This document shows positions 34,362 through 34,961 of a stretch of DNA of 64,000 nucleotides, one piece after another. This stretch comes from Acidobacteriota bacterium. GTDB taxonomy: Bacteria > Acidobacteriota > Blastocatellia > Pyrinomonadales > Pyrinomonadaceae. Below the pieces are notes generated by a model. The model did no database searches, was not told the DNA's origin, and saw nothing but the letters and a program-made list of their open reading frames with translations. Location: the NCBI GenBank assembly GCA_046728235.1, contig JBKPEE010000033.1, positions 222 to 64,221 on the forward strand, in the 5' to 3' direction. How positions within the stretch are numbered: the stretch's first letter is position 1; each line of letters opens with the position of its first letter. The position numbers were made by a program, and so were the translations under genes.

Positions 34362-34961
34362 ATGATGAAGCGAGCCGTCTGCGTCTTGTTCTTATTTGCG
34401 GCTGCAACCGTAGCGACCGCGCAAACACCGACACCAACACCCGCGCCACCGCGCACCGCGCCGGCGGCGCCGCACACGAACCTGAAGGTCGGCCAGGCGG
34501 CGCCGGATTTCACCTTGCCGAGTTCGATCAGCGGACCTGACGGCAGGAAAACAAGCTATAAACTTAGCGATTTCAAGGGCAAGAAAAACGTGGTGCTGGC
34601 GTTTTATGTATTTGCCTTTACCGGTGGTTGAACGAAGGAAATGAAGGCGTATCAGGCTGATATCGCCAAATTCGATGCCAACGATACACAAGTTTTCGGC
34701 GTGAGTGTTGATAGTCCTTTTGCCAACGCGGAGTTCGCCAAACAGCTGGGCGTTACCTTTCCGTTACTAAGCGATATCAAGCACACGGTCGTAAAGGATT
34801 ACGGCGTTTACAACGAAAACGGTGGCTACGGCAATCGAGCGACTTTCGTCATCGACAAAGACGGAATCATTCAGCACATCGACGAAGGTAATGTCGCTAT
34901 CGATCCTACCGCCGCAGAAGACGCGTGCAACATTCTGACGCATAAGAAGGCGTCGCAATAA
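34362..34961 (+). CDS. exported AhpC/TSA-type peroxiredoxin with in-frame TGA (probable selenocysteine) at the peroxidatic position
   Basis: Track ORFs 34362..34631 and 34641..34961 share one frame. The joined translation is [13 protein letters not shown][TGA]TKEMKAY...GVSVDSPF...FPLLSD. Signal peptide [21 protein letters not shown]. Confidence 0.7.
34646..34667 (+). promoter_or_regulatory. candidate bacterial SECIS hairpin
   Basis: GGCG-UAUCA-[GGC]-UGAUA-(U bulge)-CGCC begins 15 nt after the UGA at 34629..34631. The apical loop is G-rich. Confidence 0.4.

Follow-up and report, generated by a model that had tools for sequence, protein, structure and literature searches.

A gene for a predicted exported peroxiredoxin from a member of the Pyrinomonadaceae (Acidobacteriota; Blastocatellia) carries one in-frame UGA codon at the position of its catalytic residue, and comparative analysis indicates that this codon very probably encodes selenocysteine (Sec) in a functional protein. 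The gene occurs at 34362..34961 on the forward strand of a 64,000-nucleotide stretch of contig JBKPEE010000033.1 (GenBank assembly GCA_046728235.1; the whole stretch is referred to here as the window), and it is complete, with 199 sense codons, of which UGA-90 is one, and a terminal TAA. The assignment of Sec is based on selection for a single frame across the TGA, the conservation of the TGA together with a hairpin, the occurrence of Cys-containing homologs, the signal peptide, and the retention of Thr, Arg, and C-terminal Cys residues.

A conserved in-frame UGA in a peroxiredoxin gene

As conventionally translated, the gene appears as two open reading frames (ORFs), 34362..34631 (89 amino acids) and 34641..34961 (106 amino acids), which share a frame and have the TGA at 34629-34631 between them; read-through yields a product of 199 amino acids with this single TGA in frame. 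When Cys is substituted for the stop, the product matches the Pfam AhpC-TSA family (PF00578) with an E-value of 1.3e-38 and a score of 132.1 bits (cutoff 26), over positions 1-124 of the 124 in the profile, and the match spans the TGA. The stop falls on the C of the T-x-x-C block, such that the predicted Sec codon (34629..34631, forward strand) specifies residue 90, the peroxidatic position, within FTGG-U-TKE. A first-pass annotation, made from the letters of the window, had described a TGA lying in the same frame between both ORFs and at the catalytic Cys position, and the sequence and the PF00578 match confirm this description. TGA is otherwise an ordinary stop in this genome, and it terminates 15 of the 33 longest ORFs of the window.

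A scan of species-representative genomes returned 57 loci, including 53 from metagenome-assembled genomes of Pyrinomonadaceae/Blastocatellia with 58-88% amino acid identity to the window protein. All 53 of the Blastocatellia loci (L032 and L050 among them) have TGA at the residue-90 codon. The earlier argument that the stop is not a random nonsense mutation is upheld by this fixation, and the recurrence of the TGA in more than 50 independent assemblies likewise speaks against an assembly error, which that annotation had named as a way in which its reading could fail. Outside this group, the locus from Bryobacteraceae (L054) has TGC at the residue-90 codon, while in an AhpE-like homolog from Dehalococcoidia (L056 (4542); 42% identity) the same codon is TGA, a hairpin unlike that of the window comes after it, and Pro is kept at position -7 relative to the peroxidatic residue. 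In Bacillus sp. FJAT-27445 (NZ_LMTI01000001.1; L057), two peroxiredoxin genes lie side by side, at ~10130 and ~10772, and each has TGA as its peroxidatic codon; one is BCP-like (FYGMDFTPG-U-IKE) and one is AhpC-like (FFYSSNFTFV-U-PTE).

Among the 120 best listed database proteins, the peroxidatic position is occupied by Cys in 79 (F-[TS]-x-G-C), by an apparent Trp ('W') in 31, and otherwise in 10, a few of which are C-terminal fragments starting with MKAYQ. The alternation of Cys and Sec that the first-pass annotation had anticipated at this column is therefore seen, with TGA in Blastocatellia, Dehalococcoidia, and Bacillus, TGC in Bryobacteraceae, and Cys in the 79 listed proteins. The 'W' at the peroxidatic position is an artifact of reading TGA with genetic code 4, as confirmed on the DNA that encodes P0001: this DNA has TGA, and translation of the gene with code 11 does not yield the protein as listed. 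On short contigs, the gene-calling software had evidently gone over to code 4. In the case of JGI contig Ga0604447_0123564 (L060 175-726; proteins P0001-P0047), Trp is given at the catalytic position, though the DNA has TGA.

We used a codon alignment of 52 sequences for selection and synonymous-site statistics. On the upstream side of the TGA, nucleotide divergence is 0.29, 63% of differences fall at the third codon position, and amino acid identity is 78%; on the downstream side, these values are 0.30, 61%, and 72%. Across the 18 codons around the UGA, by comparison, nucleotide divergence is 0.07, four-fold lower than in the rest of the gene. Since purifying selection is equal on either side of the TGA, both a pseudogene and a functional product ending at residue 89 are excluded, and the scatter of split positions that the first-pass annotation had associated with pseudogenization does not occur among the orthologs. 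The ATG at 34641, three codons past the TGA, is replaced by a Leu codon (TTG, CTG, CTA, CTT, TTA, or CTC) in 30 of the 52 orthologs (column 60), and separate translation of the second half is therefore not conserved.

An all-against-all screen of 0.93 Mb (the window and the loci), evaluated with codon-position statistics, identified the peroxiredoxin cluster as the sole credible case of a conserved in-frame TGA. Other TGA clusters with high third-position bias were rejected as Arg/Ser-rich, antisense-looking frames, and a simple search for other selenoprotein genes by their CxxU, UxxC, and TxxU motifs was overwhelmed by ORFs out of frame.

The hairpin downstream of UGA-90

[quoted passage not shown] Its upper hairpin of 9 bp (34646-34667) consists of the 5' arm GGCGUAUCA, a GGC loop (34655-34657), and the 3' arm UGAUA-U-CGCC, in which the central U (34663) is bulged, while an optional weak lower stem is given by the pairing of UGAA (34642-34645) with UUCG (34671-34674). 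The hairpin starts 14 nt after the UGA (10 nt when the lower stem is included), and the loop starts 23 nt after it. This hairpin is part of the MFE fold, and the same 9 bp are found de novo by RNAalifold from the 52 sequences. In bacteria, the SECIS element is a stem-loop located right after the UGA, with a small, G-containing apical loop (PMC1088965), a published description with which the geometry observed here agrees. As in the SECIS elements of Escherichia coli fdhF and fdnG, the stem-loop lies 3' of the UGA within the ORF and has a small G-containing loop, a bulged U, and a spacing of ~10-14 nt; it differs from them in having no sequence similarity, in its GGC triloop, and in the placement of the bulged U on the 3' arm, and SelB binding is presumed in its case.

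The hairpin is further evidenced by its pattern of synonymous constraint. Normalized synonymous entropy is 0.14 for the 10 hairpin codons vs. 0.76 for 86 other well-conserved codons (Mann-Whitney p = 2e-7), and the drop in entropy coincides exactly with GGT-GGT-TGA-ACG and AAG-GCG-TAT-CAG-GCT-GAT-ATC-GCC-AAA-TTC. This constraint is not attributable to codon bias, because the hairpin's three Ala residues each use a fixed codon of their own (GCG in 50/52, GCT in 52/52, and GCC in 48/52). Pairing is retained in 97.5% of cells, vs. 23-46% when the partners are slid by 1-3 columns, and compensatory double changes occur in two pairs (24-45 and 30-38): a G-C to A-U change in L029, and a U-A to C-G change in L013 and L016, of which TAT to TAC is synonymous and GAT to GGT replaces Asp with Gly. 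The residues encoded by the hairpin are invariant in the Sec forms and variable in the Cys forms, and in the one Cys-form DNA compared (L054), no hairpin follows the codon. On the evidence of these alignments, the hairpin is under selection at the RNA level; the first-pass description of a SECIS-like hairpin downstream of the UGA holds as it was given, with conservation, constraint, and compensatory pairs in addition.

The codons that flank the UGA (34626-34634) are also fixed, with GGT before it in 51 of the 52 sequences and ACG after it in 51. This fixation suggests that selection may act on the local context of the UGA, for example through competition with release factor 2 (RF2), besides the selection on the hairpin.

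Active site, predicted export, and relation to known families

The residues expected around a peroxidatic center are conserved on both sides of the UGA. Thr87 (34620..34622, forward strand), the active-site Thr of T-x-x-U, is Thr in all 52 aligned sequences (column 53), and Arg159 (34836..34838, forward strand), the conserved peroxiredoxin catalytic Arg within NRATFVID, is invariant in the 52 sequences and aligns with the Arg in NRGTFVVD of AhpE. The closest solved structure is that of Mycobacterium tuberculosis AhpE (Rv2238c; E ~1e-23), with which both the T-x-x-C block and the Arg align. The top seven matches in the PDB (E from 9e-24 to 2e-22) comprise the AhpE sequence (Rv2238c/MT2298) and one closely matching chain named 'AhpC/TSA family protein', and Prx1-type structures, which score about 1e-19, rank behind AhpE. 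We take the Cys of the AhpE T-x-x-C block to be the peroxidatic Cys45, and the Arg of NRGTFVVD to be the catalytic Arg116. AhpE (Rv2238c) is known as a 1-Cys, cytoplasmic enzyme with an active-site Pro (FFPLAFTGIC) and without a resolving Cys.

The window protein and AhpE have in common the A-F-T-G-x-C block, the Arg of the NR(A/G)TFV(I/V)D segment, and a core domain of the same size; the window protein differs in its predicted export, its UGA/Sec, Val83, and a C-terminal extension with Cys189. This last residue (34926..34928, forward strand) is a candidate resolving residue, encoded as Cys in 52/52 sequences (TGC in 45 and TGT in 7; column 162). Because Cys189 never varies, in the Cys-type homologs as in the Sec forms, and sits in an extension outside the AhpE-aligned portion, we read it as the residue that probably resolves the oxidized enzyme by forming a selenenylsulfide with U90. 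The protein thus appears, by sequence, to be AhpE-like without being a typical AhpE, given its invariant Cys189 in the C-terminal extension and its conserved signal peptide.

A further feature of the active site is Val83 (34608..34610, forward strand), which, from the comparison of listed homologs, occupies the canonical Pro position of P-x-x-x-T-x-x-C/U. Among the 120 best listed proteins, position -7 is Val in 31/31 of the 'W' (TGA) forms, with the pattern YV[LF]AFTGGU, and Pro in 77 of the 79 Cys forms, with the pattern [YF]PAAF..GC. The two Cys forms with Val at this position are P0003 (YVLAFTGGC) and P0083 (FVLAFTGGC); P0046 also combines Cys with Val, and its lack of the Thr (AFGPNC) places it outside the 79 by the motif search. 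Both of the Bacillus genes at L057 are likewise without Pro at -7 (Gly in one, Ser in the other). These patterns hint that Sec and the loss of this Pro may go together in several lineages of peroxiredoxins.

The N-terminus of the protein is predicted to direct export. Residues 1-20 (34362..34421, forward strand) form a signal peptide of the general secretory type, with predicted cleavage at A-T-A|Q, as judged from the sequence and the architecture of the orthologs. At least 46 of the 50 orthologs that have a complete N-terminus show the same layout (M-x-K-[KR], a hydrophobic core, and A-x-A|Q), and those of the 50 without a signal peptide have a wrongly picked start codon. No lipobox is present in the signal peptides of these 50 orthologs, and a twin-arginine motif is not conserved among them, RR occurring in only 5. 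The signal peptide is followed by a linker rich in Pro, Thr, and Ala (residues 21-38; 34422..34475, forward strand), the length of which varies from ~5 residues in some orthologs to ~35 in others. Both the signal peptide and the Pro/Thr linker from which the first-pass annotation had predicted an exported protein are accordingly present.

Sec-containing peroxiredoxins, grouped as 'Prx, TxxU', are long established by experiment and abundant, and the known principles of Sec decoding and peroxiredoxin catalysis are unchanged by the present case. Their prototype is PrxU of Eubacterium acidaminophilum (Sohling et al., 2001, as cited in PMC13188914). TxxU peroxiredoxins were counted in 78 organisms in 2016 (PMC5029168), in the Sargasso Sea they are the family ranked second by abundance (PMC1088965), and repeated conversions from Cys to Sec have been inferred for peroxiredoxins (PMC1794560). 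As the T/SxxU 'Prx' family is defined in PMC1794560, the window protein belongs to it: the protein scores above the PF00578 threshold and has T87-G-G-U90 and R159, which are invariant in the 52 sequences. With this family, it shares the PF00578 fold, Sec in place of the peroxidatic Cys, a SECIS-like element within the coding region just after the UGA, and widespread Cys homologs. Relative to PrxU and other TxxU proteins, it is distinguished by its closest similarity to AhpE, its signal peptide, Val instead of Pro, and its Blastocatellia host, and its score of 87.6 bits against the PrxU equivalog NF040737 (curated cutoff 270) indicates that it is not a PrxU ortholog. None of the NCBIfam models claims the window protein.

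Closer relatives are the Cys-type exported homologs of Bryobacteraceae and other Acidobacteriota (P0042, P0071, and L054), at ~50-60% identity, which share the signal peptide, FTGG(C/U)TKE, and the C-terminal Cys, and which differ in having TGC, Pro at -7, and no hairpin after the codon. The peroxiredoxin-like thiol:disulfide oxidoreductase selenoproteins have in common with the window protein a PF00578-related thioredoxin fold and Sec in the redox center. They carry a thioredoxin-like UxxC motif (PMC1088965), whereas the window protein is of the TxxU type, with Sec at the peroxidatic position. What is distinctive here is the combination of an AhpE-like lineage, a conserved signal peptide, a Sec-linked change from Pro to Val, an invariant C-terminal Cys, strict presence in Blastocatellia, and systematic misannotation in public databases. 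Exported selenoproteins are already known from bacteria, and FdnG is one of them; FdnG is exported in folded form via the twin-arginine translocation (Tat) system, whereas the window protein has a signal peptide of the general secretory type.

The genome also encodes, at 29571..30038 on the forward strand of the window, an ordinary cytoplasmic BCP/PrxQ, with its peroxidatic and resolving Cys five residues apart. The first-pass annotation had cited this bcp gene as carrying the Cys version of the active site (TPGCTREAC), as it does, and the genome therefore pairs an intracellular Cys peroxiredoxin with a Sec peroxiredoxin for export.

Alternative readings, proposed mechanism, and genomic context

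Several results weigh against Sec as the residue inserted at UGA-90. ARAGORN found no tRNA of any kind in the window and none for Sec in the 57 loci, Rfam gave none for Sec in the window, and tblastn searches with the E. coli SelA, SelB, and SelD proteins found none of the three in the window or the ~0.86 Mb of sequence that flanks the gene in 53 related Blastocatellia genomes. The first-pass annotation had likewise seen no selA, selB, selC, or selD in the window, and the tRNA and homolog searches agree with it. The stability of the folded region is unremarkable (z = -1.4 for 54 nt and ~0 for 81 nt), and single-sequence folding stability was not used as evidence; the covariation is thin, amounting to 3 cells in 2 pairs in an element that hardly varies; and Rfam searches, of the whole window at the gathering threshold and of a 200-nt region at E<=10, returned no SECIS family. 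Val83 replaces the canonical active-site Pro, although the operational T/SxxU definition is unaffected, and the motif PxxxTxxU has been called highly conserved in Sec peroxiredoxins (PMC13188914). In the literature, we found no report of Sec in Blastocatellia, and none for Chloracidobacterium or AhpE; already in 2006, selenoproteins had been attributed to the phylum Acidobacteria (PMC1794560). Three matches from these searches were set aside: the sole SelB match in the window, which is the GTPase domain of LepA (2334..4133); a snoRNA match in the Rfam searches, which is a chance match; and a 95-nt 'tRNA-Pro(ggg)' called by ARAGORN at L056 9670-9764, ~5 kb from the Sec peroxiredoxin, which is without Rfam support at E<=1 and is likely a false positive.

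The negative searches for Sec machinery in the window and the related DNA also favor a recoding of UGA-90 to Cys, Ser, or Trp by a suppressor or mimic tRNA, such as a tRNA-Cys(UCA) of the selC* type or an acidobacterial allo-tRNA, with the hairpin acting as a stimulator of read-through or as the site of a SelB-like factor. There are precedents for such decoding, since selC* tRNA-Cys(UCA) mimics the tRNA for Sec and the allo-tRNAs of Acidobacteria can suppress nonsense codons (Mukai et al., PMC5389517), and Cys at residue 90 would yield a working enzyme, as the 79 Cys homologs illustrate. However, selC* was reported in that study from anaerobic Firmicutes, Thermodesulfobacteria, Nitrospirae, and Proteobacteria, not from Acidobacteria, and always beside a full Sec system (PMC5389517), and ARAGORN detected no selC*-type tRNA or allo-tRNA in any locus. 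If the product contained Cys, TGC would be the simpler codon, and a TGA with a costly, constrained hairpin would not be expected to persist in all 53 Blastocatellia loci. We consider recoding to one of these residues improbable.

A slightly less probable reading still is that UGA-90 mostly terminates, giving an 89-residue exported fragment or serving as a selenium-sensing, regulatory attenuator, or that the second half is translated separately from the ATG at 34641. Termination at some frequency would be in keeping with E. coli, in which Sec insertion competes with RF2 and recoding has an efficiency of 30-40% (PMC4513850), and a potential restart codon does lie three codons past the TGA in the window. 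The equal same-frame selection downstream of the TGA and the frequent replacement of that ATG by Leu codons, described above, stand against both versions, and half of a thioredoxin fold would be inactive, with Thr87 and Sec encoded upstream of the break and Arg159 and Cys189 downstream. Lastly, public gene callers either split the gene (P0028, P0036, P0057, and P0091) or render its TGA as Trp, as they might if the gene were a pseudogene, if the TGA came from faulty sequencing or assembly, or if TGA had been reassigned throughout the genome (code 4 or 25). The comparative data have already refuted these explanations, the probability of which is negligible: the same TGA occurs across the independent assemblies and in many metagenome contigs with no other disruptions, selection acts on both halves, TGA serves as a stop for many of the long ORFs of the window and has no other credible conserved in-frame occurrence in the 0.93 Mb screened, and an enzyme with Trp or Gly as its catalytic residue would be inactive. 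The insertion of Sec at UGA-90 is thus the reading that we retain.

In the mechanism that we infer, which covers dependence on SelB, the identity of the residue inserted, the route of export, what Cys189 does, and both the reductant and the substrate, the hairpin at 34646-34667 would form behind UGA-90 during translation and recruit the complex of SelB, GTP, and Sec-tRNA(Sec), so that Sec is inserted instead of termination taking place. The precursor would leave the cytoplasm via the general secretory translocon, with cleavage after A-T-A at residue 20, to give a mature enzyme of ~19 kDa in the periplasm or outside the cell. There, the selenolate of U90, positioned by Thr87 and Arg159 and with Val83 in the usual place of Pro, would attack hydroperoxides, and the resulting selenenic acid would be resolved by Cys189 to a selenenylsulfide. 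Reduction of the enzyme could then be carried out by an extracytoplasmic thiol-disulfide oxidoreductase, for which a neighboring DsbA-like protein is one candidate.

This candidate is an exported protein of 556 amino acids, encoded at 35450..37120 on the reverse strand, which combines a SurA-N-like region with a DsbA/Thioredoxin_4 domain (CSAC motif; PF13462, E 3e-27; PF01323, E 1.5e-15). Its gene is convergent with the peroxiredoxin gene and lies at most 9 kb downstream of it in 36 related loci, directly adjacent in ~15. On the strength of this gene context, and as speculation, the DsbA-like neighbor may be the redox partner of the peroxiredoxin. Nine related loci share with the window a small lipoprotein gene (35010-35438 in the window; lumazine-binding-like, PF12893) between the peroxiredoxin and DsbA-like genes.

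A broader proposal, which we put forward tentatively and regard as rather less likely than its being incorrect, is that the protein represents an undescribed, Blastocatellia-wide subfamily of extracytoplasmic, AhpE-like selenoperoxiredoxins, with a V-x-x-x-T-x-x-U site, a catalytic cycle between Sec90 and Cys189, and recycling by periplasmic thiol-disulfide exchange. If this were true, a single exported antioxidant enzyme would be the main reason for which these aerobic soil Acidobacteria keep all of their machinery for decoding Sec. A more unusual variant would have the UGA read by a non-Sec route, for example as Cys by a mimic of the tRNA for Sec.

The observations on this gene point to Sec utilization in Blastocatellia/Pyrinomonadaceae. 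They also bear on annotation, as public protein sets list the gene either in two pieces or in full length, with a false Trp at its catalytic site, and it is probably misannotated across this class of abundant soil bacteria. Furthermore, the forms with Sec and Val at -7, and those with Cys and Pro at -7, exported enzymes that are otherwise alike, provide a natural comparison for learning what a peroxiredoxin gains from selenium when it acts beyond the cytoplasm.

Upstream of the gene, a Shine-Dalgarno sequence, AAGGAG (34350..34355, forward strand), was read from the sequence 6 nt before the ATG at 34362. A sigma-70-like promoter match, TTGTCA-17-TAAACT (34297..34325, forward strand), agrees with the consensus at 9 of 12 positions and is weak evidence for a promoter; 2 sites were found vs. 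0.6 expected in shuffles. Among the database proteins, P0064 (154 amino acids, ENA) has an N-terminal half that is a cytoplasmic Cys-type peroxiredoxin (AFFPAAFSGVCTKELC) and a C-terminal half that is, from FKRTVVKDYG onward, nearly identical to proteins of the Sec clade; this protein may be the product of a chimeric assembly or of recombination.

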